From positions 42,180 through 106,179 of IMG/VR virus record IMGVR_UViG_3300027714_000001: 64,000 nt of DNA. One strand, given 5' to 3'. Numbering within the stretch: position 1 is the stretch's first letter; the number at the start of each line of letters is the position of its first letter. Under the pieces are notes generated by a model, which was not told the DNA's origin, ran no database searches, and was given only the letters and a program-made list of their open reading frames with translations. This stretch comes from a virus. Position numbers and translations under genes: made by a program. This document shows, one piece after another, positions 9,523-50,030 of the stretch.

Positions 9523-9840
9523 ATGAAGAAAATAGCAATAACAGCCCTTACATTAGGAATGTTAGCTTGTAGTTCTTCGAAGTCTACATTAATTAACGAA
9601 GATCATACAAGACTAAACATGGAAATAAAAGTTCATGTTTTTAAAAACAAGAAGCTATTAAATAGCGCACTAAAAAAAGAGTTTCCTCGCGAAATAAGAA
9701 CTGTAGAAGGTTTTGCAGTATGGTATAACACAGTAGAAGATTACTGCGAAATATATGTTACTAAACCAGACTCTAAGTTTGACATTAACACTTGGGGACA
9801 TGAGCTAGCACATTGTGTGTATGGCAGTTGGCACGACTAA
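9523..9840 (+). CDS. lipoprotein with HEXXH motif
   Basis: Lipobox MLAC; WGHELAH. Confidence 0.7.
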   Translation: MKKIAITALTLGMLACSSSKSTLINEDHTRLNMEIKVHVFKNKKLLNSALKKEFPREIRTVEGFAVWYNTVEDYCEIYVTKPDSKFDINTWGHELAHCVYGSWHD

Positions 9841-32175: not shown

Positions 32176-32564
32176 TATTGATTCCACGTTACAAATCAAC
32201 CTAAACTAGGAGATCTAGATGACAGCATATAGTGATGTTGTATCAATTAACAGAGACAATGTACTGTTTGTCAAACAAAGCTTTGACGTACACTTTGATG
32301 GTGTAACTGTAAGAAACCACCCAACAAATCCTCTTGAGCCTAAAAGCTTAGAGGATTTAATCGCACATCTGGACGACGCAGAATTGTGCCAACTACAACG
32401 AATTATAGAGCTGAGACAAATATGAGCAATTTCCAAAAGTATTACCTAGAAATGCAAGCGAACCAACAGAAAGTTGACAATGCAGAAGTTATAAGACTAG
32501 CACTAGCATTGCCAGACAAAGAAAAGAAGGAACTACTTGCTGCACTATTAAAGGAGACACAGAT

Positions 32565-32789
32565 ATGACAGAAGAACAGAAGCAACAAATATGGAACGCT
32601 ATAGACGAGCAGACCGAATCACATAGGGAAAGGCCAAAAGAGGCAGCAGAAGCAATATCAGCTATGCTACAGGAAGCATTTGAGTTCGAGCAAATTGCTA
32701 GGCATTTAGCAAATAATGTACCAAACAAGTATGTACTAGAAGTAATCCGACTGTTAAGAAACAGAGTAGCAGAAGGACTAGGGATATGA
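32565..32789 (+). CDS. hypothetical protein
   Basis: AGGAG RBS. Confidence 0.6.
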   Translation: MTEEQKQQIWNAIDEQTESHRERPKEAAEAISAMLQEAFEFEQIARHLANNVPNKYVLEVIRLLRNRVAEGLGI

Positions 32790-33496
32790 GCCAAGAAAGA
32801 GTAGAAGAAATTAAACGTATACAGGCAGAGCTGGAGCTAGAACTAGCCTCTTACACTCCTGTGTCAACCGAGATATTAACCCCCATCATTAATAGAAAAT
32901 ATGTTCTGAATAATAAGTGGAACTACGACTTACTGGAGAAAGATTTCCACAAGCTAAACGGTAGGTACATTCCACTAGATGCGATAAAGAAAATCACTAA
33001 ACGTTTACGTATCAATAGACTGCCGCAGCTAGACGTACCAATTAAAGAACTACAACTGCTAAATCCACTAGGACTAGAAGATGTATTTAAAACGATTAAA
33101 GGTTGCTGGTATTACAACACTGAAATTCCTGCTAGACAGTTAGCAATGCATTTGTTCTTAGGAAAAAAGAATGTTCTAGAAGAAGGACAATCATGTACTA
33201 GGTGGTTTCCAAAGAATACATTGAGAGAAGTTATAAATATTGATAGAGACCCGCTACCATTTTCTGATACAAACCTCAATATTAATGGGATGCCTGACCT
33301 AGATACTAGCTTTCCGTGCGAACCTACACAGGAATGTTTAGATATTTTAAAGACAGGACTAGGCAAGAGACACTTAGTAACAGCTTCAAACTATTACAAC
33401 TACGACCTCATACAATTAGAGCTTTTTATCCAAACGGGGATTAACTACAGGCCATCTGTCAAGGAGTTACAACCCAAACACTTGATCGGCATTTAA
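32786..33496 (+). CDS. hypothetical protein, last early gene before the repeat region
   Basis: 236-aa ORF with ATGA overlap. Confidence 0.7.
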   Translation: MSQERVEEIKRIQAELELELASYTPVSTEILTPIINRKYVLNNKWNYDLLEKDFHKLNGRYIPLDAIKKITKRLRINRLPQLDVPIKELQLLNPLGLEDVFKTIKGCWYYNTEIPARQLAMHLFLGKKNVLEEGQSCTRWFPKNTLREVINIDRDPLPFSDTNLNINGMPDLDTSFPCEPTQECLDILKTGLGKRHLVTASNYYNYDLIQLELFIQTGINYRPSVKELQPKHLIGI

Positions 33497-33591
33497 AAGA
33501 TTATTTGACAGTAGGATTTTCCTATGCTATAATTACAAGGTAATCTTAAGAGAGACTAGAGAGAATCTTTAGAATCTCTACTACCTCCGCA

Positions 33592-33687
33592 AGATTTGAC
33601 AGAGCTTAAGGTCTAGGATATACACCTCCCGATACCATACGGGAAGGGGGTGTTTATACGCAGACTAACTTTAGCTTCTTCAAATCT
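33592..33687 (+). ncRNA. candidate rod-like RNA
   Basis: Downstream of promoter 33505-33533; nested helices AGATTTGA/TCAAATCT, AGCT/AGCT, GTCT/AGAC, CACC/GGTG, CCCG/CGGG. Confidence 0.5.
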
Positions 33688-33919
33688 AAAACAAACAACA
33701 AATCATTAACAGCCACAGCTATATCTACCAACAAATATAACAACTAATATCTACACAAGAGGGGACTTTTAACGCTATAGAACCCACTCGAACGGTATGA
33801 ACAACCAATGTCGTATAGAGCTTCGAGAACCCCTTCACCATAATACTAGCCTACACTAGTCCACACCAGACTACACCAATATCGTCCTAGACCAGAGTAG
33901 AACAACACAAGACTACACC

Positions 33920-33958
33920 AGCCCGCTAATGTCCCCAAGAGAGACTGCGGGCTTTTTT
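33920..33958 (+). terminator. rho-independent terminator
   Basis: AGCCCGC...GCGGGCT followed by a T-run. Confidence 0.7.
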
Positions 33959-33990
33959 GTGTCTAAAATTTAATACCTCTAGTCAAAACT

Positions 33991-34105
33991 GTCATAATTG
34001 TTCGCTAATGTCCAAAAGCAGTCAGAATTGCAGTCATAATTGTTCGCTAATGTCCAAAAGCAGTCAGAATTGCAGTCATAATTGTTCGCTAATGTCCAAA
34101 AGCAG
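33991..34105. repeat. 42-bp tandem repeat, ~2.7 copies
   Basis: GTCATAATTGTTCGCTAATGTCCAAAAGCAGTCAGAATTGCA at 33991, 34033, 34075. Confidence 0.95.
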
Positions 34106-34457
34106 GGGCCGACCCCATCGGAATAGACAACCCCGTCAGCTCAGAACGGGCTAGGGCGCAGGAGAGCTTCTAACGGGACATTAGCGGTCTGCCCCGAGTC
34201 TAACACCAGATTAGCCGTGGTTACACCGAAATAAACTTTAAATAGCGTTGACAAACCGCTTGCGCTCATGTATAATAGTATGATAAAGTGGGAAAGCTTA
34301 TGCCAAAATTCGCCGCAGCGGGGGGTAACATTATCACTACCCGCACCTAGTCTGCACCTACCACACAGTCCCGCCCCGTCCCGCAGAAAAACTAAAAAAT
34401 CACTTGACAAGCAACGTCTCGGTAAGGTATACTAGGCGCGAGTCTAATATAAGTACT

Positions 34458-34621
34458 AACGTAACATAAGTACTACCTCGCGGGCGCAACAACGTAACAT
34501 AAGTACTACCTCGCGGGCGCAACAACGTAACATAAGTACTACCTCGCGGGCGCAACAACGTAACATAAGTACTACCTCGCGGGCGCAACAACGTAACATA
34601 AGTACTACCTCGCAGGCGCAA
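34458..34621. repeat. 33-bp tandem repeat, 5 copies
   Basis: AACGTAACATAAGTACTACCTCGCGGGCGCAAC; preceded by TTGACA(34404)/TATACT(34428). Confidence 0.95.
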
Positions 34622-34797
34622 ACAGGGGTGAACCCCTTTTGACCAATCTAAACTGATCAAAATTTGACTGGACCGACCAGTCAAATAAAGCTTGACACGA
34701 GAACGCTGCGCGCAGCTTCCATGCCACTTTGTCAAGCTTTTTATTTAATTTTAAGCAAAAAAAAGCCATGCCAATGTGGCACAGCTTTTGCTAGAGC

Positions 34798-35160
34798 TTA
34801 CAGCTCAGTAGCGACTGACAAAGCAGCGAGAGCTTCGTTCAAGCGGTCTAGGTCAGCTTTGCTGGCCTTCTCTAAAGAATCCAACTCGCCTTCCTTAAGG
34901 CTAAGAAAAATTTCAGCAGCCCGCACTAGCGAGATTTTGCGAGTGCCAGTTTTTGAGGTTACAGAAACTTTGACGTTAGGCTCATACAAACCTTCGCTTA
35001 CTAGTTTACCGCGAACCATAGGAATGGTCTTGCCCAAACCTTTTGCGATGCTAGACAAGGCATCGTTTTCGCCTTTGTATTCGCTTTTAAGAGTAGCGAT
35101 TTGCGCAGGAGTCCAAGATACAGATTTTACAGCAGATTTTACAGTTTTTGCATTAGACAT
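34798..35160 (-). CDS. T5 A2/D3-like DNA-binding protein
   Basis: WT..., IAK.LG...VRGKL..EG.Y and K..LVR.AE..L.L..G.LDSLEKA motifs. Confidence 0.75.
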   Translation of the reverse strand: MSNAKTVKSAVKSVSWTPAQIATLKSEYKGENDALSSIAKGLGKTIPMVRGKLVSEGLYEPNVKVSVTSKTGTRKISLVRAAEIFLSLKEGELDSLEKASKADLDRLNEALAALSVATEL

Positions 35161-35447
35161 TTACGTCTCCTTTAGTAATGCGGATTTGGGATTATTCCCG
35201 ATTTCTTAAGACTATTATAACAATTTTTAGTCTTTGAGTCGAGCTTTTATTTAATTATTTTTTAAACTAAATTTCCAGCTTGTCCTGATTTCTTAAGACT
35301 ATTATAACAATTTTTAGTCTTTGAGTCAAGCCTTTATTTAATTATTTTTTAAACTAATTTCACAAACCTTCCCAACTCAAGACAAGTATTATCTCACAAT
35401 GTTAGCTTGCTGTCCAGCTTTATTTCAAAATAAGGTGAAAATAAAGT

Positions 35448-35463
35448 TGGCACGGGTCTTGCT
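35448..35463 (+). promoter_or_regulatory. sigma54 -24/-12 consensus site
   Basis: TGGCAC-GGGTC-TTGCT; IHF consensus AATCAATGACTTA at 35501-35513. Confidence 0.55.
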
Positions 35464-35589
35464 AGGAAAATAGGGGGTTGACTTTTAAAAACTCCTTTAA
35501 AATCAATGACTTACGCCGCTTCGCCGCGCGCGGCTGCGACCCCCTTTTGTCAAGTTTTATTTTTCAAATTTTAAATAATTTGCTCATAC

Positions 35590-35835
35590 TTAATCCCTAA
35601 CACTAGCCATAAAATCAGAGCAATCATCCGCGTTAAAATTTCCATCTTCGTCTATGTCTTCCGATTCAATCCAGCCTGAATCAGTTTGTAAAAGACCATG
35701 TGATTCTGCAAAATCCTGCTCGTATTTTTCCATCGCAATGTCTTCCGCTTGGTTCTCGTCTTCCGCTTCGACTTCGTAATGTTCACTGTACCCACACCAG
35801 TCTACAGCGTAAATTTCTACTATGAATTTTTTCAT
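35590..35835 (-). CDS. very acidic small pre-early protein
   Basis: 81 aa, strongly Asp/Glu-rich; AAGGAG RBS. Confidence 0.7.
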   Translation of the reverse strand: MKKFIVEIYAVDWCGYSEHYEVEAEDENQAEDIAMEKYEQDFAESHGLLQTDSGWIESEDIDEDGNFNADDCSDFMASVRD

Positions 35836-36137
35836 CGGTTTAGCTCCTTAAACATTAATTGTCTTATTGTTTCGCACGTAGCGTCACTTGCTAAAATAGA
35901 AATATTTTTAAAAGTCTTACCATCCCTTCGAAGTTCTGCGCCTAGCTCCTTAGCTATATACTGAGAATCAGCAAACTTTAAAACAGGCATTGCCATACAA
36001 TGCAACGAACGTTGACGAAAAAGGCCGCCCCCTTTTGTTAGCGTGATCTCTCCGTCTTCCCAAATTTCTTGTACCATCCCAACATTTTCCATAGTTGGGG
36101 CGGCTTTAAATGCTTCGATTATTTTTAAAATGCTCAT
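35832..36137 (-). CDS. hypothetical pre-early protein
   Basis: ATGA-coupled operon. Confidence 0.7.
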   Translation of the reverse strand: MSILKIIEAFKAAPTMENVGMVQEIWEDGEITLTKGGGLFRQRSLHCMAMPVLKFADSQYIAKELGAELRRDGKTFKNISILASDATCETIRQLMFKELNR

Positions 36138-36442
36138 TTTTGTAGTTCCTTAAGTAGGTCTTCTAGTTCTGAAATTTGGTCTTGTCTGTCTCCAAGCTCT
36201 GATACTATATTATCATATTCTTCATGACAATGCTCTATTTCTTTGATAAGTTTTGCTATTTTTAAGGCTCTTGCAGGGTCAAAATTTAAGTCTACTGTTT
36301 TTACTCGTAAAACAGTAACAGATTTATACGTATCTGGAATCTGTTCTAGGGTTTCAAAGTATTCTACTACTTCAATACACCCACCAGAGTAGTTGTCTCC
36401 AACTACTTTAGAACTTACTACCTTATAAAGTTTACTCATCAT
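36134..36442 (-). CDS. hypothetical pre-early protein
   Basis: Own promoter/RBS cassette. Confidence 0.7.
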   Translation of the reverse strand: MMSKLYKVVSSKVVGDNYSGGCIEVVEYFETLEQIPDTYKSVTVLRVKTVDLNFDPARALKIAKLIKEIEHCHEEYDNIVSELGDRQDQISELEDLLKELQK

Positions 36443-36890
36443 TTTTCTTCCTAGTTATTCAATACAAGTATTATCTCATAAATAAGCTACGTTGTCTAAT
36501 ACCGTTTTAGTATATGCTTATGCATTTTTAGTCTTGACAGGCGTTCCGCCGCGCGCGGCTGCGACCCCCTTTTGTCAAGTTTTATTTTTCAAATATTTTT
36601 TCATCCCCTTTTAAGTCCTTTTTTTTGTTTTTTAAAAATAATTACTGCTTGCTTTCTATAAAATTCCTTAGTCTCTGTGCAATTATTTTCATTATACCCT
36701 TCATCTACTAAGTTTTTAAAATTTCTTAACATGCTTTTAATATTCTCCAATAGCTAAAATTAAATTCTTTTTTGTCGGTATATTTGTTTGACTTTTTGCA
36801 AAATTTCTTTGCTTCTTTTTCTGTCTCACAATAGCCGACAATATCCACAATTCCAAACTTATCTGTAATTTCTACAATATACATATTATA

Positions 36891-37157
36891 TCACCATATA
36901 AAAAATAAAACAACTAAATTCGATGTAATGCCTATTATGCTAGAAACGATATGAAGTTTGCATTTTCTAGTAATTGCGTCAACTAAGTAACAACATAAAG
37001 CAGTTATTAACAAAACTATACTAGCTATAGGCATAGAAACACCTGTTTTTATTGAAACTATTACATTAGGAATATTCATCATTTGCATTAGGCCGAAGCC
37101 TACCCAAGGAATATAAGCAAGCATTGCTTGCTTATATTTATTAAATCTATTTTCCAT
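36891..37157 (-). CDS. small membrane protein (PQ-loop/SemiSWEET-like topology)
   Basis: Three TM segments with IPN(V) after TM1. Confidence 0.55.
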   Translation of the reverse strand: MENRFNKYKQAMLAYIPWVGFGLMQMMNIPNVIVSIKTGVSMPIASIVLLITALCCYLVDAITRKCKLHIVSSIIGITSNLVVLFFIW

Positions 37158-37912
37158 TATAAAAACTTTACCTCGTTCAAAGTTACATTTTTACCTAGAC
37201 GAATTTTGTCTTTGATTTTTTTTAATTTTTCTTCGTTTAAAATAATTTCTTCTTTGTCTTGGATAAGTCTCCAAGGGTGAGAAATAATACCGTAGTTAAT
37301 TTTCTTACCTAGACCAAGCAATCGGACTAAAAGCTCTTTTTCAATTAGTGCATCATCTAAAGCGGTATGCGACTCTTGAAATTCCCAATCCCCAATGCCG
37401 TATTTATAAGCAACTTCGGCATTAGTTTTATAGTTACCCGCAGGTGAAACATGACCCATTAACTTACACCACTTTTTAAAAGTACGTTGCTGTAGTAATG
37501 TCTCGCAAGATACACGCCACAAATCAAGTTGCTCTCTTTTGCCTATAGCCATAAAGCCACCATATTTACGACCTGTATTACTAATGACCCTAGAATCAAA
37601 AGCTAAATTATAAGCGCAAATAGTAGTGACACCATGATTTTTCATTAGCTTGTTTACGTCATGGCAAATTACAGCCCAGCTTTTTACGTCCATACGGTTG
37701 CATCGGATATTTGGCTTGTAAAAGCTATCGACTTTTTTAAAGTAAAAGGCTTTTTTCATCATCTGGACATTTTCAAAAACTTCCTTTATAATGGAATCAT
37801 ATCTTGCAAGCTCTTTGCCTTCTTTGTCACAAATTACCATACCAAAATCAAAAACTTCACCCGTCAAAGTTGCGGTTTCTGTGTCGATTACTGCGTATAT
37901 TCTTTTAGTCAT
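37157..37912 (-). CDS. DEDDh 3'-5' exonuclease
   Basis: IDTET, AYNLAFD and HTALDDA motifs. Confidence 0.85.
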   Translation of the reverse strand: MTKRIYAVIDTETATLTGEVFDFGMVICDKEGKELARYDSIIKEVFENVQMMKKAFYFKKVDSFYKPNIRCNRMDVKSWAVICHDVNKLMKNHGVTTICAYNLAFDSRVISNTGRKYGGFMAIGKREQLDLWRVSCETLLQQRTFKKWCKLMGHVSPAGNYKTNAEVAYKYGIGDWEFQESHTALDDALIEKELLVRLLGLGKKINYGIISHPWRLIQDKEEIILNEEKLKKIKDKIRLGKNVTLNEVKFL

Positions 37913-38343
37913 TTTTTAATTCTCTATCTAAGTAAGTGCTAATTATAGCTTTTTTGGTGGTTTGTGTCAAGTGTTTATTTAAGCTATTTTATAAATAAAT
38001 TCTCTTTGCTCTCCCCATCCAACACAAGTATTATCTCATACCCTTTCAACATTGTCAACCCTTTATTTTATTTTGTTTTAAATTTAATTTAAAACTAACT
38101 CTGTACCGATTCAACACAAGTATTATCTCATAAATACGTTGGGTTGTCAAAGACCGTTTTGGTATAGCTTTGCTTGTTTTTATACCAAAACGGTCTTGAC
38201 AGGCGTTCCGCCGCGCGCGGCTCCTGCGGCCCTGTCAAGTTTTTATTAAAAATAAAATTCTTTCTAGTGTGTCTATTTCGCCCGCTATGTAAGCTAATCT
38301 GTACGCTTTTTGTCGGGTGTTTTCTCTCTCATTAGTTACTAGT

Positions 38344-38601
38344 TTATGCGTGTTTCTTGCGATTTTTAGCTCTTTTTCTATTATTTGTTTTGGCAACATC
38401 TTTTTTCTCCTTTTTGTGAAATTTTAAATAGCATTCGTATACGCTTAAATATTCTTCGGCTTCCTGATTTACATAGTTTTTACCTTCAAGATAGACGCAA
38501 ACGGATGCCTCTTGCTTGTATGTTTCCCAATAATTGGCAACGGCTTCAAGGCTAGTAAATACACCATGAACTTCTAGATACTCTAGTGCAACATAAATCA
38601 T
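38344..38601 (-). CDS. hypothetical pre-early protein
   Basis: Directly follows the upstream stop. Confidence 0.6.
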   Translation of the reverse strand: MIYVALEYLEVHGVFTSLEAVANYWETYKQEASVCVYLEGKNYVNQEAEEYLSVYECYLKFHKKEKKDVAKTNNRKRAKNRKKHA

Positions 38602-38603
38602 TA

Positions 38604-39116
38604 TTAATGACCCTCAAAAGGTACGTTTATAGATTGCATACCGATTTTAATAACGGCTTTGCAGTTTGCTAAATTATCATCAATCAAAACCATTTTTTCC
38701 AATTGGCGAAAATCAAAACGGCTAATTAAGTGTGTAGTTTTTAAGTGGTAATCTCTGCGAGAATCATTTTCACCACATCGCGCCATAATTGATTTAGGCT
38801 TTACGTTATTATTAGCTAACCAAGCTTTTGTGTTATCACACATTACGCGAGCTGTACATATATGAAAATCAACTCCCGCTTCCTGTAGTAAGTGAATTGC
38901 CTTAATTAATGGTAAAGCTTTATCTTTTGATACATGTTCGGCGGTTGACATTTCGCGGTACTTGTCAAGGTTTAATGAACCGTCTTTGTTGCAAATCTGT
39001 CTATGACTTGCATCGGCAAAAACTCCGTCCATATCAAAAACAGGAACTTTTTTCGCCATGATTAGGGTAGCGGCTAATTGAGTTGCTGACTTTTTGTTAT
39101 TTTGTAGTGTAAACAT
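38604..39116 (-). CDS. HAD phosphatase (PseT C-terminal/dmp-like role)
   Basis: VFDMDGV, TAR, K and LIDDN motifs. Confidence 0.8.
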   Translation of the reverse strand: MFTLQNNKKSATQLAATLIMAKKVPVFDMDGVFADASHRQICNKDGSLNLDKYREMSTAEHVSKDKALPLIKAIHLLQEAGVDFHICTARVMCDNTKAWLANNNVKPKSIMARCGENDSRRDYHLKTTHLISRFDFRQLEKMVLIDDNLANCKAVIKIGMQSINVPFEGH

Positions 39117-39669
39117 ATTTTTTATTCTCTTTATTAATTCAGTGTAAGTATTATATCGCGTTTGGCGGGTGGAGTCAACCTTTTATTCAATAAAATTATC
39201 AATAAAATCATCGGCATCTTCTATGCTTTTAAAGTTAGCTATGACTTCGTCTTTTTCGTTTATAACTTCGTAGATTCCGTTGTTCAAAAATTTATACATT
39301 TAAAGTTTTCCTAGTTATTCAATACAAGTATTATCTCATAAAAGTATCGTGTTGTCCACCGCTATTTTAGTATATGGCATACTAAAAAGTTATTTGACAA
39401 AAACCGGAAAGCCGCGCGCAGCGTTGCCGCCCCTGTCAACCTTTATTTTAAATATATTCCCAGATATATTTAGACTCAAAATATTCTTCGGTTTCCACAC
39501 AATTTTTAGTATTGCAATAGTGGTCTGCATCTTGCCATTTTTCAAAAGTCAAGAACTCATTTTCTCGCTCAATTACTTCGTTGCGGCTTAAGGTTAATAA
39601 ACTTACCCGTACCATATTAAATTCTCCAAAAAAAAAAAAAAGCCCGAGGCGAACGCCCCGAGCATATTA

Positions 39670-39993
39670 TTAAGCTTCTACCAGAGCCTGCACAGCATCT
39701 AGGATGGTTTCAAGATCAGATTTTGATGCCTTCTCAAAGCTGGTAACTTCTTCAACACCTAGCAAGTCAGAGATTGCTTGCACTAGGGTGATTTTACGAA
39801 CCGCCCTGCTAACGCTAGGGGATGCGCTTTTTGCTTTAGCAACATAAACACCTTCGGCAACAAGCTTGCCACGTACTTGCGGGATAGTCTTGCCCATGTC
39901 TTTAGCGATAGTTGCAATTGCAACGCCTTCCTGATACTTAGCAGTCATAGCGGCAACAGATTCGGTAGTATAAGCGGTAGATTTAGTAGTCAT
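39670..39993 (-). CDS. second T5 A2/D3-like protein
   Basis: IAKDMGKTIPQVRGKLVAEGVY...RKITLV...EKASKSDL; clear paralog of 34798-35160. Confidence 0.75.
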   Translation of the reverse strand: MTTKSTAYTTESVAAMTAKYQEGVAIATIAKDMGKTIPQVRGKLVAEGVYVAKAKSASPSVSRAVRKITLVQAISDLLGVEEVTSFEKASKSDLETILDAVQALVEA

Positions 39994-40119
39994 ATTATTT
40001 TTACTCTCTTTAGTTATTTAGAACGTTTATTATAATTCAATTCGGTTGTTAAGTCAATCTTTATTTTAATTCTTTTTTGTAATCTTTTTAATTCGTTTCC
40101 CTGATTTCTTAAAGCTATT

Positions 40120-40449
40120 TTACCATGTTTTATTGGTAGCTGTCAAGTGCATTTCGTAACTTTCTTTAATTTCTTTTCTAGCGGCTTGCTTAGAAAAGAA
40201 AGCTCGTAAACAAACTATTGCAGAAAAGCTAGGAATAACCACAATACAAGATAATAATTGAAAAACAGTCATTTCTAATCCTTGTTTTAAGATATACATT
40301 ATATCACCATAAAGTCCTGTAGTCGAGTCTTTTAATAGATTAAAAATGCTTTTATGATAAATCGCCCTTGGCGAGTTTCCCTCTGGCGTAAAATTTGGGT
40401 TTAACAAAGCTTCGGCATATGCCTTATCTGTAAATTCTTTAAAAGTCAT
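40120..40449 (-). CDS. hypothetical membrane-anchored protein
   Basis: One hydrophobic segment; own cassette promoter. Confidence 0.6.
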   Translation of the reverse strand: MTFKEFTDKAYAEALLNPNFTPEGNSPRAIYHKSIFNLLKDSTTGLYGDIMYILKQGLEMTVFQLLSCIVVIPSFSAIVCLRAFFSKQAARKEIKESYEMHLTATNKTW

Positions 40450-40565
40450 GGGGTTCTTCCTAGTTATTCAATACAAGTATTATCTCATAAAAGTATTGTG
40501 TGGTCTAATAACATTTTCGCATAAGCTTAGATCAAAATGATCTTGACAGCGGCGGCGAGCCGCGC

Positions 40566-40637
40566 GCACCTAATATTTGCACCTAATATTTGCACCTAAT
40601 ATTTGCACCTAATATTTGCACCTAATATTTGCACCTA
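40566..40637. repeat. 13-bp tandem repeat, 5.5 copies
   Basis: GCACCTAATATTT. Confidence 0.95.
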
Positions 40638-40898
40638 TAAGTTTTGTACATAAGTAGTCCCAAACTCAAGAGGGATCTGCCCCGTCTTTTTGTTGATGAA
40701 ATTTTGAACGATTGGCTGAAAATCGAAATTCTTAGCAATGCTCTTATATACCCCCACATCGGTCAAATCTGCAAGCACGTTAGCCGCTACAAGCTCATTA
40801 AGTATTTTTAGACCCTTAGTTACACTATCAACCTTAAACGTCTTAGAAGGCATCCTAGAGCTTGATTCTGAAAAAACCCGAATTGCTATTGTTGACAT
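40635..40898 (-). CDS. hypothetical protein
   Basis: AAGGGG RBS. Confidence 0.6.
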   Translation of the reverse strand: MSTIAIRVFSESSSRMPSKTFKVDSVTKGLKILNELVAANVLADLTDVGVYKSIAKNFDFQPIVQNFINKKTGQIPLEFGTTYVQNL

Positions 40899-40947
40899 AT
40901 GTTATACCCTTTAGTTATATTAAATTCATGCCCATTGGCACAATAAA

Positions 40948-40976
40948 TCCTAAACGAGAATGGTTCTCGTTTAGGA
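40948..40976. promoter_or_regulatory. Fur-box-like palindrome
   Basis: TCCTAAACGAGAA-TGG-TTCTCGTTTAGGA. Confidence 0.5.
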
Positions 40977-40989
40977 GTGACCCACCTTT

Positions 40990-41460
40990 TTAGATACTTG
41001 TCAATAATTCATTTATCAATTTATTGATTCTATCAATGTCAAGGTCAATATTATTTAATTCAAATTTTTCTTGCTTTTTATTATATATCACTTGTAACGC
41101 TTTGTGTACCGTTTTTTCGTATTTGCCATTTATTTCTTCAAGTTTCTTCGTAAGTTCTTTACGAGCTTTTGAGCAGCTTTCTAGCGCGTATTTATCTGCC
41201 AGATTATTAAATTCAACATCATCCGTTATAACAAAAACAGTCACTAATGAGTCACTATCAACCAAAACGTTATAACGTCTTAGTGCTTGATATGGGTGAA
41301 AAGATTTACCCACTTTGCAAGCCCATTTTATGTTATTTTTGCCCAAAAAACTACCCACCGGCACTGAATATATGGTGTTAGCTAATTTGCCTATTTTGTG
41401 ATCAGATTGGTGATTTTTTAGGCTTTTTTGGATTGCTCGTATTTTCATCGTTTTTCTCAT
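40990..41460 (-). CDS. hypothetical protein downstream of the sigma54-type promoter
   Basis: 156-aa ORF with C-terminal coiled coil. Confidence 0.65.
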   Translation of the reverse strand: MRKTMKIRAIQKSLKNHQSDHKIGKLANTIYSVPVGSFLGKNNIKWACKVGKSFHPYQALRRYNVLVDSDSLVTVFVITDDVEFNNLADKYALESCSKARKELTKKLEEINGKYEKTVHKALQVIYNKKQEKFELNNIDLDIDRINKLINELLTSI

Positions 41461-41487
41461 TTAATTGATTAGGTATTACCTATATAA

Positions 41488-41690
41488 TGCAACCTACGTG
41501 CCAAGTTGCAAAATAGGTAAGTCGTTGATTTATAAGGGTTTTTATATTCTAGCTAATTGAATAGTTGGCATGATGACATTTTATGCACCTGAATAGTGCA
41601 ATGATTCCTGATTATAGTGCACCACTTTGGTAAGTCGTTGATTTATAAGGGTTTTTAACCTTTTTGAGATGCACCAAAAACTGACATACC
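41488..41690 (-). promoter_or_regulatory. sigma54 promoter with IHF sites and NtrC-like enhancer
   Basis: rc TGGCAC-GTAGG-TTGCA (41503-41488); IHF AATCAACGACTTA (rc 41518-41530 and 41631-41643); TGCAC-N7-GTGCA (41584-41600). Confidence 0.7.
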
Positions 41691-41780
41691 AAAAACACAA
41701 AAAACGTGTTAAGTCTAATAACAAATTAATCAAAAAATAAACAAAAAAGTATTGGACATTTGAAAATCATAGCAAAAAAC

Positions 41781-41922
41781 TTATCCACAGGTTATCCACA
41801 CACTTATACATCTGGGGATAAAAAGCGGCTTTTTAAAATGTCAACCTTTTATTTTAGCTCTCTCAGTGAGTTATACAGAACTTACCCACAGGGTTATCCA
41901 CAGGCTGTTGGGTTGTGGGTAA
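41781..41922. promoter_or_regulatory. DnaA-box cluster
   Basis: TTATCCACA at 41781, 41792, 41894; one-mismatch boxes at 41813(rc), 41871, 41882, 41914(rc). Confidence 0.8.
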
Positions 41923-42105
41923 CCTGTTAGCAACAAAAAACCTCCAATATAAACGCCCTGTACGGTCGCTGGTGGCATTATCTCTTAGCAGTCTTATTGA
42001 TACAAAGGGTAGGGCTAAACGCGCACACTAATCTAAATGATTACCATTCGCATTTGGCGGCGCGGGCGCGATGCGGGCTGTAGAGCATCGCTACAGCCCG
42101 CGCCC

Positions 42106-42279
42106 TTAAAGGGCGGTAGACTGCCCCAACAGCTTATACGTTATTTTCTCAACCCTATCTTCATGTATACCATATTGATCTAAATAGCTCTTTTGAGCGT
42201 CTACAAGTGTGTTGCCTTCAGCCGTTGCAACGTGCATTCTGCCACCAATTAAATTTGTTGTGAATTGATAAACTTTCAT
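42106..42279 (-). CDS. small hypothetical protein (57 aa, MKVYQFTTNLIGG...)
   Basis: AAGGT RBS; below the ORF-track cutoff. Confidence 0.5.
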   Translation of the reverse strand: MKVYQFTTNLIGGRMHVATAEGNTLVDAQKSYLDQYGIHEDRVEKITYKLLGQSTAL

Positions 42280-42355
42280 ATTTTGCTACCTTTTAAAATT
42301 TTCTGGTTAAACCGAATTGTTTAACCAGACCTATATCCTACAGCGCTCGGGTACC

Positions 42356-42553
42356 TTAGTCAAGTAAATGTTTAAAGTTATTTCCAGATATGTCTGCTTT
42401 AGTTCTTAGGTAAACATTTTTATTTGTGGTACTTTTACCTGCCTGTATATCTTTGCGGATATTTGACCAGTCAAATGCTACCACGTCAACGAAATATTCC
42501 GCCAATTCGATTTTTCCAGATTCTAGTATTAGGTAGTAATTAGTTGCTTTCAT
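42356..42553 (-). CDS. small pre-early protein
   Basis: Preceded by the 38-bp repeated promoter/RBS cassette. Confidence 0.7.
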   Translation of the reverse strand: MKATNYYLILESGKIELAEYFVDVVAFDWSNIRKDIQAGKSTTNKNVYLRTKADISGNNFKHLLD

Positions 42554-42740
42554 TTTCTTTACTCTTTATTTATTCGATGAGGTATTATCTCAGGTTCTAA
42601 TCTATTGTGCAAGTACAAATGTCAAAAAAGCGGATAAAAAACATAGTGTACTAAAAAAGTTTTGTTCGCCTTGTTTGTCCGAAGTAACACACATTATGCC
42701 AAAAACTATAGTAAATAATAAAGCAGTTATAAACATAATT

Positions 42741-42938
42741 TTAACCTTTACAAAATGCGGCAGATGCCTTAAATGTCATGTCATAATTTACAACCATATC
42801 CATCTCGCAAACCGCTCTCTGGTGAACTTCGATTCCGGATTTTCCCAATCCTAGTGAAGTACCAAAAACGGCAGCTATATACATAACAGATAAAAGTACT
42901 ATGACCTGAGCGATTGACTTCATTATTAGTGTTTTCAT
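42741..42938 (-). CDS. small membrane pre-early protein
   Basis: Same cassette; N-terminal TM. Confidence 0.7.
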   Translation of the reverse strand: MKTLIMKSIAQVIVLLSVMYIAAVFGTSLGLGKSGIEVHQRAVCEMDMVVNYDMTFKASAAFCKG

Positions 42939-42985
42939 TTTCTTTACTCTTTATTTATTCGATGAGGTATTATTGCATTCTAATG

Positions 42986-43219
42986 CTAGATTGTAAAGGG
43001 TATTTTTGAATTTTCTTCCCAATTATTATTAAGTTTTTTATTTTGGTTAAATCTATCAGAATCAAAATTAGCCGCAATGGTAATGTACTGGTGTTGGTGA
43101 AACGCGGTAGCAAAAAGACCCTTATCAAAACAGTCACGCAAAAACTCAAGACTTTCAAGTCTTGACAAATTACGGGTAGTGGTATTTTCGGTTTTTACTG
43201 CAAATTCGTTGTCATTCAT
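42986..43219 (-). CDS. small pre-early protein
   Basis: Same cassette. Confidence 0.7.
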   Translation of the reverse strand: MNDNEFAVKTENTTTRNLSRLESLEFLRDCFDKGLFATAFHQHQYITIAANFDSDRFNQNKKLNNNWEENSKIPFTI

Positions 43220-43464
43220 TTTCTTTACTCTTTATTTATTCGATGAGGTATTATTGCACGAAAAGGGTACCTTTGTGAAATACCGAATTGGAATAAGCAC
43301 CTGCTTTTTAGTTATAAGCCGCGCGCAATGGGGGCTGCAGGGGTGCTCTGTAGGGCGGGCGCAATGGGGCCTGCAGAGCATGAAATTAAATGAAATAAAA
43401 GGTTGCTATTATCTGTCAATACTGTATTATTACCTTACTGAAACAAAACGAACCGAGAAGAAAA

Positions 43465-43815
43465 ATGACCACATTCACTATCACAAGATTAACAGAGACA
43501 CAAGCACGAATCATGCCACAAGGCAATCATTTATATTTATGTGAGACCCTGACAAAACTTGGCATGAATTTTGATGGCACCAAGTTCGGAAAGTGTAAAG
43601 CGAAAAACGGCCTATGGGAGCGTCTACGCTCCCATAGTACCAACTGCCCATTTGGTCTAATCATAGTCCTGACGTTCACTACAGAGGCTGCTATGTGTGC
43701 CGCTGAGAGCGCCTGTAAGACTTCTCTACCAACCCTTGCTTGGAATAGCTCAGAACGAGAATATACTTCATTAACCCCTGAGAAGGCTTTACAAGCTCTA
43801 TTACGTAACATCTAA
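43465..43815 (+). CDS. T5orf172/GIY-YIG-like protein
   Basis: HLYL...TKFG...ERL..H.T..P...AE...REY pattern. Confidence 0.55.
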   Translation: MTTFTITRLTETQARIMPQGNHLYLCETLTKLGMNFDGTKFGKCKAKNGLWERLRSHSTNCPFGLIIVLTFTTEAAMCAAESACKTSLPTLAWNSSEREYTSLTPEKALQALLRNI

Positions 43816-43836
43816 TAGGGGCGGGGGGGGTTAGGA

Positions 43837-43853
43837 GACTGGTCTGACCAGTC
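43837..43853. promoter_or_regulatory. FadR/GntR-type palindromic box
   Basis: GACTGGTC-T-GACCAGTC; variant GACTGGACCGACCAGTC at ~34666-34682. Confidence 0.5.
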
Positions 43854-43940
43854 CGACCCCCCAGACCCATTTCCAAACGCGATATAGGGTATTTTCAAAA
43901 AAGTGGAGAGGCGCGACAAATATCGGCTGAGGAGACCCTC

Positions 43941-44170
43941 ACTACGGTTCTCTGCGGGACATTAGCGAACGGGGTATACTATTTCTACTACGGTTCTCTG
44001 CGGGACATTAGCGAACGGGGTATACTATTTCTACTACGGTTCTCTGCGGGACATTAGCGAACGGGGTATACTATTTCTACTACGGTTCTTTGCGGGACAT
44101 TAGCGAACGGGGTATACTATTTCTACTACGGTTCTCTGTGGAACATTAGCGAACGGGGTATACTATTTCT
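43941..44170. repeat. 46-bp tandem repeat, 5 copies
   Basis: ACTACGGTTCTCTGCGGGACATTAGCGAACGGGGTATACTATTTCT; extra core copy at 44192. Confidence 0.95.
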
Positions 44171-44242
44171 ACTTTGCAGTAGCCTGAGCCAGGACATTAG
44201 CGAACTGCAGGTAGTTTAACGAAGTTCGCTTAAAATTTTTAC

Positions 44243-44271
44243 TTGACAGGATATTTCTGGAGATGTATAAT
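44243..44271 (+). promoter_or_regulatory. late sigma70 promoter
   Basis: TTGACA-17-TATAAT with TG extension. Confidence 0.85.
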
Positions 44272-44292
44272 GCAAGTATAGAGGAGAAATAC

Positions 44293-44757
44293 ATGGACAA
44301 CGAAATAACCGTGATAAGCCCCGAGGGGTTGGAGATAGCACACTGTTATCTGCAAAATAATAGTGACTCGGTTAAGACTGCCGAATTACTTAATATAGAC
44401 ATTACAGAAGTCGACAGATACTTGTGCAAGCGGGAAGTACGAGGATACATTGATAGACTATTTAACGAATCGGGCTTCCGAAATCGTGATAAGATGGCCA
44501 ATGTTTGGGACGCAATCCTAGCAGCCAAGTTGGAAGAAATGGACGATACAGGTATGGGCTCGTCAAAAGATATTGTAGAGATAATGGAGAAGATTCATAA
44601 ATTTAACCTAGACCAAATGAATATGCAACTAAAAATACTAGAACTGGAGAAATCCAAGGAGCCCGCAGTGGTGGTCAATACGCAGAACAACTACGGTGGG
44701 GCAAATTATAACAGTTTAATGGAAAAGATATTAGCAGGTAAAAATGGAGATAAGTAG
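44293..44757 (+). CDS. terS: terminase small subunit
   Basis: ISPEGLEIA..YL, GFRNRD, KLEE and SSKDI motifs typical of T5-like TerS; GAGGAG RBS. Confidence 0.85.
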   Translation: MDNEITVISPEGLEIAHCYLQNNSDSVKTAELLNIDITEVDRYLCKREVRGYIDRLFNESGFRNRDKMANVWDAILAAKLEEMDDTGMGSSKDIVEIMEKIHKFNLDQMNMQLKILELEKSKEPAVVVNTQNNYGGANYNSLMEKILAGKNGDK

Positions 44758-46036
44758 ACCGTACTTAAATTGTGAAAACATTATAGACTTCCCCGTAGCG
44801 GAGCGTTTTCTAAAGCTACCCGTTGAGAACTTCCTAGAACTAAAAGGCATAGAACCTATAGCGCCCCAGATTGGATTGATAAACGCTATAAACGACCCTA
44901 TACATAGATTTGTAGTCGCCTGTCTATCTCGTAGAACAGGTAAGACATTCATATCTAACACTCTAGCGTTCTTGAAAGCTATGGAACCAAAGTCAAAAGT
45001 ACTGATAGTATCGCCTAACTTCTCATTAACAAACATATCTTGGAATGAGCAGATAACTATGCTTAAAGATCACAACATTGAGATAGAGTCTAAGAACAAG
45101 GCCTTGCGTGAGATACACCTAACAAATGGTTCTATGATAAAGTTTGGGTCATACAATAATCCAGATTCATTAGTAGGACATTCGTACGACTTGATACTAG
45201 TGGACGAAGCAGCCCTAGAGAACAAAGGGGCAGATGTATTCAACGTACAGCTACAGCCTACTCTAGACAAAGCAAACTCTAAATGTATCTTCATAAGTAC
45301 ACCACGAGGTTTGAATTACTTTTATGACTTTTACATGCGAGGGTTTAGCGATGACTACCCTTCTTGGATAAGCATACATTCTACCTACCGTGACAACCCC
45401 AGAAGTGTTTCGAGTGTTATTGAAGAAGCTCGTAAGAGTATGAGTAAGGCTGAATTTAAGCAAGAGTACGAAGCAGACTTTGCAACGTTTGAAGGACAGA
45501 TATACGAAGGGTTTGACGAGGATAAGCATGTACGCGACCTTAGTGACATGGAGTTTCCTGAGCACAGATTTGAAGCTATAATGGGTATTGACCCCGGCTA
45601 CAAGGACGATACAGGGGCTGTAATATTCCAATACGATATGGATGAAGACAAATTTTACTTAATGTGGGATTACCAAGAAAAAGAACGAAATACAGAGCAG
45701 CACGCACTAGAATTTTATAACCGCATGGAAGGCTGGAATGTAGACATAGTGTTCTGCGACAGCGCGGCAGCCCAATTCAGGCAAGACTTAGCTTCCTTAT
45801 ACGACATTCCTAGCAACAAAGCTAACAAGAGTGTACTTGACGGACTAGGGTATGTACAAGCCTTGATAGACAACGACAAGCTAATAGTAGATATTAACTG
45901 TACTCATGTCATCATGATGCTCCTCAACTATCGTTGGGACCCTAACCCAATGCTTGCAAAACCCAAACCGAAGCACGATCAGTTCTCGCACGTTGCGGAT
46001 GCCCTGAGATATGCACTATACAGCTATACTCGTTAG
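44744..46036 (+). CDS. terL: terminase large subunit
   Basis: MEISRPY N-terminus, SRRTGKT Walker A, LVDEAA Walker B, GIDPG, H.ADALRYA. Confidence 0.95.
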   Translation: MEISRPYLNCENIIDFPVAERFLKLPVENFLELKGIEPIAPQIGLINAINDPIHRFVVACLSRRTGKTFISNTLAFLKAMEPKSKVLIVSPNFSLTNISWNEQITMLKDHNIEIESKNKALREIHLTNGSMIKFGSYNNPDSLVGHSYDLILVDEAALENKGADVFNVQLQPTLDKANSKCIFISTPRGLNYFYDFYMRGFSDDYPSWISIHSTYRDNPRSVSSVIEEARKSMSKAEFKQEYEADFATFEGQIYEGFDEDKHVRDLSDMEFPEHRFEAIMGIDPGYKDDTGAVIFQYDMDEDKFYLMWDYQEKERNTEQHALEFYNRMEGWNVDIVFCDSAAAQFRQDLASLYDIPSNKANKSVLDGLGYVQALIDNDKLIVDINCTHVIMMLLNYRWDPNPMLAKPKPKHDQFSHVADALRYALYSYTR

Positions 46037-47813: not shown

Positions 47814-48061
47814 TGCAAAAGATTATAGAGCAAGTTTATGCAGTCTACGGTAATGAGTTACCTAGTAGAGTAGTATATAACGCTATGACTAATAAGCCCC
47901 TATCTGTTAGAAACATCATAAGAAAGTTTAAGAGATGGGAAAGATTTGAAGCAGCGTACAGAGAACATTGTATGGCTATTAGAAAATCAGAGGAAGCTGC
48001 TAAGGTAGTAACTAAACCTATTGTGGCTAAAGTAACTAAGCAGAAAAGTAATGAAATATAA
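47813..48061 (+). CDS. hypothetical protein
   Basis: Coupled to portal and protease genes. Confidence 0.65.
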   Translation: MQKIIEQVYAVYGNELPSRVVYNAMTNKPLSVRNIIRKFKRWERFEAAYREHCMAIRKSEEAAKVVTKPIVAKVTKQKSNEI

Positions 48062-50030
48062 TACTAAGTTATTAGCTAAATTACAAGTAGTTAAAGATCA
48101 TGAAGAAGATGAAGACGAGTTAGTTATCGAAGGATACGCTAATACCGTAACTAAAGATAGAGCAGGAGATGTTATACTACGCTCAGCGTGGGAAACAAAA
48201 ACCGCTATGTCTAACTTCTTAAAAAATCCTATTATACTAGGCTACCACGATCATTCAAACCCTATAGGGGTTATGTTAGGTTATGAAGTTGATGACCTAG
48301 GCCTTAAAATTAGGGCTAAGATTAGTAAGGGAGCAGGACGAGTATACGATCTAATAAAAGATAAGGTATTAACTACCTTTAGTGTTGGATTCAACATATT
48401 AGACGCAGAGTACGATGAAGTAAAAGACATATTCTTTATTAAGGATGTAGAACTACACGAAATATCTGTTGTATCGGTTCCTTGTAACCAAGACTCAACA
48501 TTTTCAGTAGCAAAAAGTATGGACGCTCAAGATTATGAGCAATTCAAAAAAATATTAGCGCCGGAATCAGGCGAAACAAAGGAAGAAAAAATGACACTCG
48601 AAGAAATTAAAGCATTGGCAGCCGAGCTAGCTAAAGCAAACACCCCAGTTAAAGCTGATCCCGTATTCGACGTAGTTGCAGAAGCTACTAAAGCAGCAGC
48701 AGCAGCTGTAGCACAAGCAGAAGCAGTTCGTGTAGCTAAAGAAGACGCAGCAGCAAAATCTGCTACAGACCTAGCTAACAGCAAAGCAGAAGCTAAAGCA
48801 AACGCTATGGAAGCAGCTAAAGATTTAGTTGCAGAATTAGAAACTAAGTTAAGCGCAAAAGATTCAGCATTTGCTGACCTTGTTAAAGCTAACAACGACC
48901 AGATCGTTTCTCTTAAAGAAGAAATTGCTCAAGTAGTTGCATCTCGCTCTAACAACGTAACAGCTATCGCAAAGGGCATTAACGGACCGTCGTATGACGC
49001 CAAAGCAATGGGCGATACTGCAGACAACCTAATGTTCTTAAGCACAATTAAGAAAGTAGATATGTTTGATACCGAATATGGTAAGAGCATCAAAGCTATC
49101 AACCAATCTTCTAGCATTGAAGTATCTGGTGAAGGTTATGAGACTACTTTCTCTACTAACTTATATCGTGACATTCAGGCATTGTTAGTTGTTGCACCCT
49201 TATTCAATGAAATGAATATGACTTCTGCACAAATGACATTCCCAATCAATCCAAATCGTAGCACAGCTACTTGGATTTCTGCAAGTAACATGGCAGACAA
49301 CACAGCTAAAGCCCGTACAGGTGAAGCATTAACTGTTGCGCTTACTGAGATTACACTTAAGACCTTTAAGCTAGCTGCTAAAGTATACTTAACTGAAGAA
49401 ACTCAAGAAGATGCTATCATGGCTCTTGTACCTATTTTACGTCAACACCTAGTAGAAGCTCATGCAGCATCAATCGACGCAGCATTCCTAGTTGGTGACG
49501 GCGCAAACAAGCCAAAAGGTCTTGTTACACAAGCCAAAGCAGCAGGCGGATTACAGTCTCTAGCGACAGCAGCAAACACTACTAACGTATTAGTAACTGC
49601 AGCAGGTATCTTAGAAGCTCGTAGAGGTTTAGGTCTATACGGAATTAACCTTTCAGAACTTTATGTTGTTATTTCACAAGACGCTTACTGGGATCTTATC
49701 CAAGATGCAGATTGGGCTGACGTACAGCAAGTTGGCGTTTCTAACGCAACTAAGCTAGTTGGTGAAGTAGGTAACATTTACGGAATGAGAGTTCTAGTAT
49801 CTAGCGGTTTTGCTGATAAAACATCTGGCGGAACTTACGCAATCCTACTTAACTCAAGCAACTTCGTTGTTCCACGTCAACGTGGCGTAACAGTACGTAG
49901 TGACTTTGAAGTAGAGCTAGACCGTACAGTATTCGTTGCAACACAGCGTCTAAACTTACAACCTTGGATCGAAGAAACTGCAGGCAGTGGTAACGGTAAA
50001 GGTGTAGTAGCAGTTAACTACGCAACATAA
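48051..50030 (+). CDS. prohead protease fused to delta domain and major capsid protein
   Basis: IEGYAN..KDRAGD, HDH, FSVGF, HEISVVSVPCNQDS, then Ala-rich coiled coil and KAINQSSS.EVS..YET.FS capsid start. Confidence 0.9.
   Translation: MKYNTKLLAKLQVVKDHEEDEDELVIEGYANTVTKDRAGDVILRSAWETKTAMSNFLKNPIILGYHDHSNPIGVMLGYEVDDLGLKIRAKISKGAGRVYDLIKDKVLTTFSVGFNILDAEYDEVKDIFFIKDVELHEISVVSVPCNQDSTFSVAKSMDAQDYEQFKKILAPESGETKEEKMTLEEIKALAAELAKANTPVKADPVFDVVAEATKAAAAAVAQAEAVRVAKEDAAAKSATDLANSKAEAKANAMEAAKDLVAELETKLSAKDSAFADLVKANNDQIVSLKEEIAQVVASRSNNVTAIAKGINGPSYDAKAMGDTADNLMFLSTIKKVDMFDTEYGKSIKAINQSSSIEVSGEGYETTFSTNLYRDIQALLVVAPLFNEMNMTSAQMTFPINPNRSTATWISASNMADNTAKARTGEALTVALTEITLKTFKLAAKVYLTEETQEDAIMALVPILRQHLVEAHAASIDAAFLVGDGANKPKGLVTQAKAAGGLQSLATAANTTNVLVTAAGILEARRGLGLYGINLSELYVVISQDAYWDLIQDADWADVQQVGVSNATKLVGEVGNIYGMRVLVSSGFADKTSGGTYAILLNSSNFVVPRQRGVTVRSDFEVELDRTVFVATQRLNLQPWIEETAGSGNGKGVVAVNYAT

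Follow-up and report, generated by a model that had tools for sequence, protein, structure and literature searches.

Phage T5 and its relatives are described (PMC7472727) as using the sigma-70 host polymerase for all gene classes. According to a description of the T5 left terminal repeat (Heusterspreute 1987, via Davison 2020, bioRxiv 10.1101/866236), this pre-early DNA next to dmp-type genes contains untranslated repeat regions and an injection-stop signal; DnaA boxes, arranged in pairs in the first-step-transfer DNA, and their proposed role as the T5 injection stop have already been published in the same preprint. In the Vibrio and Aeromonas Demerecviridae VspSw_1, 234P1, Direpillow8 and AhSzw-1, terS is immediately preceded by a comparable module that includes a set of small leftward genes. 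In sigma-54 promoters of the glnAp2 and glnHp2 type, NtrC dyads lie upstream, with an IHF bend between dyads and core. Here we describe a 9.2-kb region (34660–43860) that is very probably the pre-early module of an uncultured marine T5-like siphovirus, the counterpart of the T5 first-step-transfer region, and that harbors a cluster of sigma-54-type cores together with a dense group of DnaA boxes. The analyzed window comprises 64,000 nucleotides, bases 42180–106179 of the 106,179-bp IMG/VR virus record IMGVR_UViG_3300027714_000001, and all coordinates of this phage are window positions unless marked otherwise.

The module resembles the T5 repeat in being pre-early and adjacent to a dmp-type gene, in its large gene-free stretches full of direct and inverted repeats, and in its consensus DnaA boxes, which occur in pairs 2–3 bp apart and include all the perfect boxes of the genome. 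Unlike this module, T5 has no sigma-54 cluster (none of its four near-matches lies in its repeats) and carries LexA and Fur-like boxes, which the present phage lacks. Conversely, A1 and A2 were not detected in the present phage by tblastn, and its terminal redundancy and two-step entry would follow by analogy. We consider it moderately probable that the region is a pre-early module equipped with a DnaA-box region and enhancer-dependent sigma-54 promoters, in addition to strong sigma-70 promoters and to terminators.

Sigma-54-type cores and DnaA boxes

Perfect sigma-54 −24/−12 cores (TGGCAC-N5-TTGCW) occur three times in the 9.2-kb region, at 34777 and 35448 on the plus strand and at 41488 on the minus strand, and are absent from the other 96 kb of the genome. 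The expected number is 0.01 for the region under a Markov model and 0.06 in window shuffles, and none of 100 shuffles reached three. The spacers differ in all three cores, which are therefore not copies of one repeat. A sequence-only reading of this DNA had listed the three cores, together with DnaA, IHF, NtrC-type, Fur-like, FadR-like, Chi and KOPS strings, as host-factor sites decorating the leading DNA. All of the listed strings were located at the positions given and are intergenic, and the comparison with the rest of the genome and with shuffled sequence that this reading had proposed set apart the sigma-54 cores and the DnaA boxes, with the NtrC-type dyad, the 13-bp array and the FadR-like palindrome pair also exceeding chance. 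The general picture is supported for the sigma-54, DnaA, NtrC-type and IHF-type sites and is not supported for Fur, Chi, KOPS and the link to FadR.

The DnaA boxes form a cluster at 41781–41922, composed of three perfect and three one-mismatch boxes, among them two pairs 2–3 bp apart. All three perfect boxes of the window fall within these 142 bp, and the occurrence of six boxes in such a length has a Poisson P of ~1e-12. The cluster apparently corresponds to the DnaA boxes that T5 carries in its repeat regions and injection-stop signal.

From the minus-strand core (41503–41488), a start is predicted near 41477; the ATG at 41460 of a 156-aa open reading frame (ORF; 40990–41460, minus strand) follows 17 nt later, and the terminator hairpin of this gene is at 40948–40976 (minus strand). 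The ORF has no Pfam or PHROG match and is T5orf172-like by language-model features only, which serves as a lead. Upstream of the core, an enhancer-type region (41517–41658, minus strand) contains two copies of a 28-bp repeat, with IHF cores at 41518–41530 and 41631–41643, as well as the NtrC-type dyad TGCACC-N5-AGTGCA at 41584–41600, which is unique in the genome, and a second, weaker dyad at 41618–41634. Relative to the predicted start, the first IHF consensus is positioned at about −47, the two dyads at about −115 and −149, and the second 28-bp copy at about −160. As in glnAp2 and glnHp2, a perfect TGGCAC-N5-TTGCA core is followed upstream by an IHF consensus and then by two TGCACC-type dyads more than 100 bp away, with a gene directly downstream. 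The element differs from these promoters in belonging to a virulent phage without its own activator, in being predicted from sequence, and in its dyads, which are asymmetric (AGTGCA, not GGTGCA) and about 34 bp apart. This arrangement fits a complete enhancer-dependent promoter, correctly placed before a gene, and such a putative promoter is a simpler reading than the undescribed system of chromosome camouflage, regulator titration or sensing of N, Fe and lipid status that had been proposed for the same sites.

The two plus-strand cores are differently placed. The core at 34777–34792 overlaps the intrinsic terminator of gene 34798–35160 (terminator 34789–34761 on the minus strand; 34761–34792 overall), and the core at 35448–35463 faces the 3' end of the leftward gene 35590–35835. 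Downstream of the latter lie an IHF consensus (35501–35513) and then a dyad element with a T-run extending to ~35570. Neither core has an NtrC-type dyad and IHF enhancer set of the kind found at 41488. Folding downstream of 35448 and at the dyad elements gave plus-strand hairpins followed by T-runs, with z-scores of only −0.5 to −2.6, which are not distinctive, so that a small RNA driven by sigma-54 or a terminator acting on the plus strand would be hypothetical here, and an Rfam search over 33000–45000 returned only sub-threshold chance matches and no Qrr- or GlmY-type RNA.

Sites in related phages

Sigma-54 sites were counted at up to one mismatch in ten genomes. In VspSw_1, seven of the eight sites are in the pre-early region, within 3.2 kb upstream of A2/A1/dmp/terS (P 9e-8), and in 234P1 six of eight are found there within 4 kb (P 3e-5), including two exact cores in divergent orientation within the 1.4-kb gap that separates the small leftward genes from the A2-like and A1-like genes, which are rightward. 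Aeromonas phage AhSzw-1 has four of its eight sites in the pre-early region, within 2 kb, and Direpillow8 has two in each terminal repeat. In the IMG/VR relative L035, whose TerL is 76% identical, nine sites precede TerL within 9 kb, and the following 11 kb has none. A Pectobacterium phage has one of two sites in the pre-early region, and no cluster was found in T5, a Klebsiella phage or a Proteus phage. Clustering of sigma-54-type sites in the pre-early DNA alone is thus shared by the Vibrio, Aeromonas and uncultured marine T5-like phages and not by T5 or the Klebsiella and Proteus relatives.

Across 30 unique sites from six phages, both the GG and the G of GC are invariant (30/30 each). At the seventh position, which the pattern leaves unspecified, 24 sites have G, and 19 have T immediately ahead of the core. 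Of the 20 single mismatches, 12 are the common TGGCAT variant. This sigma-54-like pattern of variation speaks for a genuine sigma-54-type element over a mere resemblance.

In the Vibrio and Aeromonas phages with which the module is compared, it is positioned directly upstream of terS and contains the leftward block of small genes, and sigma-54-type cores and DnaA boxes are restricted to it. Unlike in the present phage, A1, A2 and dmp form a rightward unit in these phages, some of which also have LexA, Fur-like or CRP-like sites; in the present phage and L035, NtrC-type dyads and TTGCAC arrays are found in their stead. In L035, two copies of the dyad TGCACC-N5-AGTGCA lie directly beside three tandem sigma-54-like cores, a homologous 28-bp IHF-type repeat is present in three copies, and a 13–15-bp TTGCAC array occupies the matching place, adjoining a similar GC-rich dyad element. 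These parts are therefore conserved in L035, and their order is not. A sigma-54-like promoter at 6320 of L035 would drive the ortholog of ORF 43465–43815 and not that of ORF 40990–41460, so that promoter placement is not conserved gene by gene.

Sites for other host factors were observed on the pre-early DNA of relatives. In T5 (AY543070 228–252, 6213, 9411 and 9653–9718), all four AT-rich LexA boxes are in the terminal repeats, two per repeat, and 32 of the 35 Fur-consensus matches are in the repeats, beside the known DnaA boxes; neither type of box is mentioned in the Davison preprint (bioRxiv 10.1101/866236). In the 114-kb genome of VspSw_1 (MH925094 83971–85570), the pre-early gaps hold the perfect DnaA boxes, the LexA box and each of the four Fur-like loci. 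Within one 100-bp stretch, a DnaA box is followed by a sigma-54 core, then by a DnaA pair and finally by a LexA box. The broad idea that pre-early DNA bears host-factor sites thus has support across the family. The present phage carries only a subset: sigma-54, enhancer, IHF-type and DnaA sites. No LexA, CRP, LuxO, GlrR, parS, matS or SlmA site was found in its region.

Module identity, other motifs and flanking arrays

The region is a block of small leftward genes with rightward early genes on one side and packaging genes on the other. To its right follow terS, terL, a nicking-endonuclease homolog, a portal gene, an ORF with fused protease and capsid parts, and a tape measure of 1221 aa that belongs to the T5 pb2 family. 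The fused ORF (48051–50030; 659 aa) apparently joins the prohead protease to the major capsid protein, which are encoded by separate genes in the Vibrio relatives. TerL is 53–56% identical to that of Vibrio Demerecviridae; megablast of the region against phage records gave no nucleotide match, and a terS peptide scan of IMG/VR gave no match. Within the module, a 120-aa ORF (34798–35160, minus strand) belongs to the phrog_1725 DNA-binding-protein family (E 1.7e-5) and is one of two such paralogs. A 251-aa ORF (37157–37912, minus strand) belongs to the phrog_20187/DnaQ-like exonuclease family. A 170-aa HAD phosphatase ORF (38604–39116, minus strand) is a homolog of the pre-early deoxynucleoside-5'-monophosphatase Dmp of T5 and Vibrio phages (tblastn E 5e-10 with VspSw_1 Dmp and 1e-5 with T5 Dmp).

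The assignment to a T5-type module is probable because of this Dmp homolog, the synteny with Vibrio phages, the double copy in Direpillow8, the contig depth and the inverted bracketing arrays. Small leftward genes, a large gene-free gap, A2, A1 and dmp are found directly upstream of terS in VspSw_1, 234P1 and Direpillow8, and the Direpillow8 record has the corresponding module at both ends. In one marine DNA run, contig depth was 50–83 within 35540–42577, 34 and 43 in the flanks, and 32 over 43229–43970. The 'direct terminal repeat' of the record is a 524-bp overlap (genome positions 1–524 and 105656–106179) inside a gene that contains internal coding repeats of 312 nt, which marks the record as a circularized assembly and the overlap as no physical end. 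The module is probably one collapsed copy of a ~9-kb terminal repeat, and its DNA is, by analogy with T5, probably first injected. Some observations are less favorable to this view: only Dmp was matched among dmp, A1 and A2, the contig depths that speak for a terminal repeat are noisy, and 43229–43970 is covered by a contig at single depth only. Marine metatranscriptome contigs (three runs from two studies; match of at least 99%) map only to 34945–40095 and 42201–42390. None falls on 32500–34670, 43350–45500 or the sigma-54 targets, with a depth of 2–4 that is too thin to use either way. Their confinement to the module fits strong pre-early expression, though at that depth of 2–4.

The remaining motif calls fared unevenly. 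IHF consensus matches number five in the region and seven in the rest (P 0.005–0.007), and 11 in the window against 5.5 expected, a moderate enrichment; of the matches in the region, two are copies of the one 28-bp repeat and two overlap within a gene. Of the three IHF sites cited earlier, two are those repeat copies. The 13-bp array reported earlier is present as 5.5 identical copies (100%) of TTGCACC-containing units at 40566–40637, adjoining a TTGACA/GC-rich dyad element. The FadR-like boxes correspond to a palindrome, GACTGG-N5-CCAGTC, with exactly two copies against 0.00 expected, one at each edge of the region. The right copy (43837–43853), a near-ideal FadR-type operator by sequence, matches the idealized FadR palindrome at 15 of 17 positions (two mismatches) and the left copy (34666–34682) at 14 of 17 (three mismatches), with no lipid gene context. 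The pair is real and unique, and nothing links it to FadR; L035, the one relative having the homologous flank on the terS side, lacks the palindrome there.

Both Fur-like calls were rejected. The box at 40952 is the terminator hairpin of gene 40990–41460, and that at 42033 matches at 13 of 19 positions (six mismatches), a stringency at which the region has three of the 37 genome matches, its background share; allowing up to five mismatches, no Fur consensus match was found in the region. With these calls and the L035 flank, the proposed sensing of iron and lipid status is not supported. Chi (one match, 41968; P 0.06–0.1) and KOPS (one match, 42007; P 0.19–0.27) are at chance level, and both are E. 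coli sequences that may not be those of the host. Thus none of the three strings within 41968–42051 (Chi, KOPS and the 13/19 Fur-like string) exceeds chance; a GC-rich hairpin follows at 42040–42105.

Two sets of arrays bracket the module. The left bracket (33924–34186) has four minus-strand copies of the GGACATTAGCG core, three of them within a 42-bp array of 2.7 units, and one plus-strand copy. The right bracket, a 46-bp array of five units (43941–44202), has six plus-strand copies and ends just before the terS promoter (44243) and terS (44263). Core matches number 14 in the window against 0.48 expected, and 11 of the 14 are in the two brackets. These arrays in opposite orientation are candidate packaging or repeat-boundary signals. 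The related IMG/VR contigs L034, L036 and L038 end 600–1200 nt upstream of TerL, near the place matching the brackets.

Next to the left bracket, two rightward consensus sigma-70 promoters without a gene behind them (34248–34433, plus strand; TTGACA-17-TATAAT at 34248 and TTGACA-18-TATACT at 34404) precede an exact 33-bp tandem array of five units without an ORF (34458–34621, plus strand) and a hairpin with T-run at ~34625–34645. The whole stretch, 34248–34645, is a candidate repeat-RNA gene that runs head-on against the pre-early genes. Another candidate non-coding transcript is at 33505–33960, where a sigma-70 promoter that matches perfectly (12/12) precedes ~400 nt in which no ORF reaches 40 aa, up to a hairpin with T-run at ~33925–33960. 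A dispersed dyad element, made of TTGACA, a GC-rich center with GCGCGC, TGTCAA and then a plus-strand T-run, was observed at 34690–34745, 35500–35570, 36530–36600, 38195–38250, 39395–39450, 40545–40570 and 43315–43380. Seven of the ten GCGCGC hexamers of the genome are in the module, the element also occurs in L035, and it may serve as a terminator on the plus strand or as a binding site for a protein.

Competing explanations and possible roles

For the 41488 module, ordinary enhancer-dependent transcription is favored on the evidence of its promoter-like sequence. Host sigma-54 polymerase, a host NtrC-family activator and IHF would transcribe ORF 40990–41460, and this transcription would make some of the pre-early expression dependent on the physiology of the host. 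The cores at 34777 and 35448 may give short or antisense transcripts, or closed complexes may merely be held there. Several observations count against a promoter role. Two of the three cores in this phage (34777 and 35448) face gene 3' ends and not genes, and one overlaps a terminator stem. At 41488, the ribosome site at the first ATG of the ORF is poor, and the core DNA permits a weak sigma-70 reading with TTGGCA as −35. The genome has no sigma-54 activator domain (PF00158), so that everything would depend on a host activator. In relatives, several sigma-54 sites are inside genes or antisense to them, the three tandem cores of L035 have a 26-bp period that is unusual for promoters, and Vibrio-phage cores abut DnaA boxes, an arrangement that a docking complex fits equally well. 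In a Salmonella screen, rpoN, glnDLG and himAD mutants resisted a T5-like phage, which was explained there by RpoS and glutamine and not by phage promoters. Our literature searches turned up no account of sigma-54 elements in T5-like or Vibrio T5-like phages. The earlier description of the system as undescribed holds only in part, DnaA boxes being published for T5.

Since cores occur in both orientations, inside genes, in tandem and against DnaA boxes in relatives, docking, a reading close to the earlier one, is a serious rival, to which we give a lesser but appreciable chance. The sigma-54, DnaA and IHF-type sites would then act mainly without transcription: closed sigma-54 polymerase complexes, DnaA and bending proteins, once assembled on the entering DNA, would pause, anchor or protect it, and release would come from a host activator or a function of the phage. 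That closed complexes of sigma-54 polymerase persist stably with no activator present speaks for docking. So do the abutting of cores and DnaA boxes in VspSw_1, Direpillow8 and 234P1, the Fur-like and LexA boxes that T5 and VspSw_1 add in the corresponding region only, and the existing proposal of DnaA boxes as the T5 injection stop (bioRxiv 10.1101/866236). However, the order of entry is presumed from T5, the best site (41488) has ordinary promoter anatomy before a gene, and the lack in this phage of the LexA, Fur, CRP and parS sites seen elsewhere makes the picture of many bound proteins thin. Regulator titration, another role suggested earlier, would be implausible with three to seven sites per genome. 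In a more specific form, which we regard as improbable, sigma-54 complexes, DnaA and IHF-type benders on the first-entering DNA would constitute an injection-stop or anchoring complex that a host enhancer-binding ATPase releases or fires, so that a host signal gates full entry.

It is also unlikely that a phage protein, for which the two phrog_1725 paralogs are candidates, binds TKGCAC-type repeats and that the likeness to sigma-54 and NtrC sites is coincidental. TGCAC or TTGCA is indeed common to the −24/−12 elements, the 13-bp array and the dyads, the tandem cores of L035 are periodic, and the module encodes two DNA-binding-type ORFs. On the other hand, the spacer always has 5 bases, GG and GC never vary, a G is favored at the seventh base and the mismatches follow the sigma-54 consensus in six phages with differing gene sets; moreover, the Vibrio and Aeromonas phages with such cores have no TGCAC arrays or dyads. 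Chance matches, as expected from reading AT-rich non-coding DNA against many consensus sequences, account for Chi, KOPS and both Fur calls and would be compatible with the moderate IHF enrichment. As an explanation of the whole set, chance is very improbable, being excluded for the sigma-54 cores and DnaA boxes by the shuffles, the rest-of-genome comparison and the recurrence in relatives.

A host partner is still being sought for the T5 injection pause, and the sites described here name candidate host proteins for this DNA: RpoN, an NtrC-family activator, IHF and DnaA. If the injection-stop reading were true, a host physiological signal would decide the commitment to full genome entry. The sigma-54 cluster is absent from the enteric relatives tested, and the repertoire of sites differs between lineages; this distribution would fit hosts in which RpoN is constitutively active for polar flagella. 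The confinement of the cluster to the pre-early DNA of aquatic relatives suggests that these phages may read the state of the host through RpoN and its activators in the first minutes of infection.

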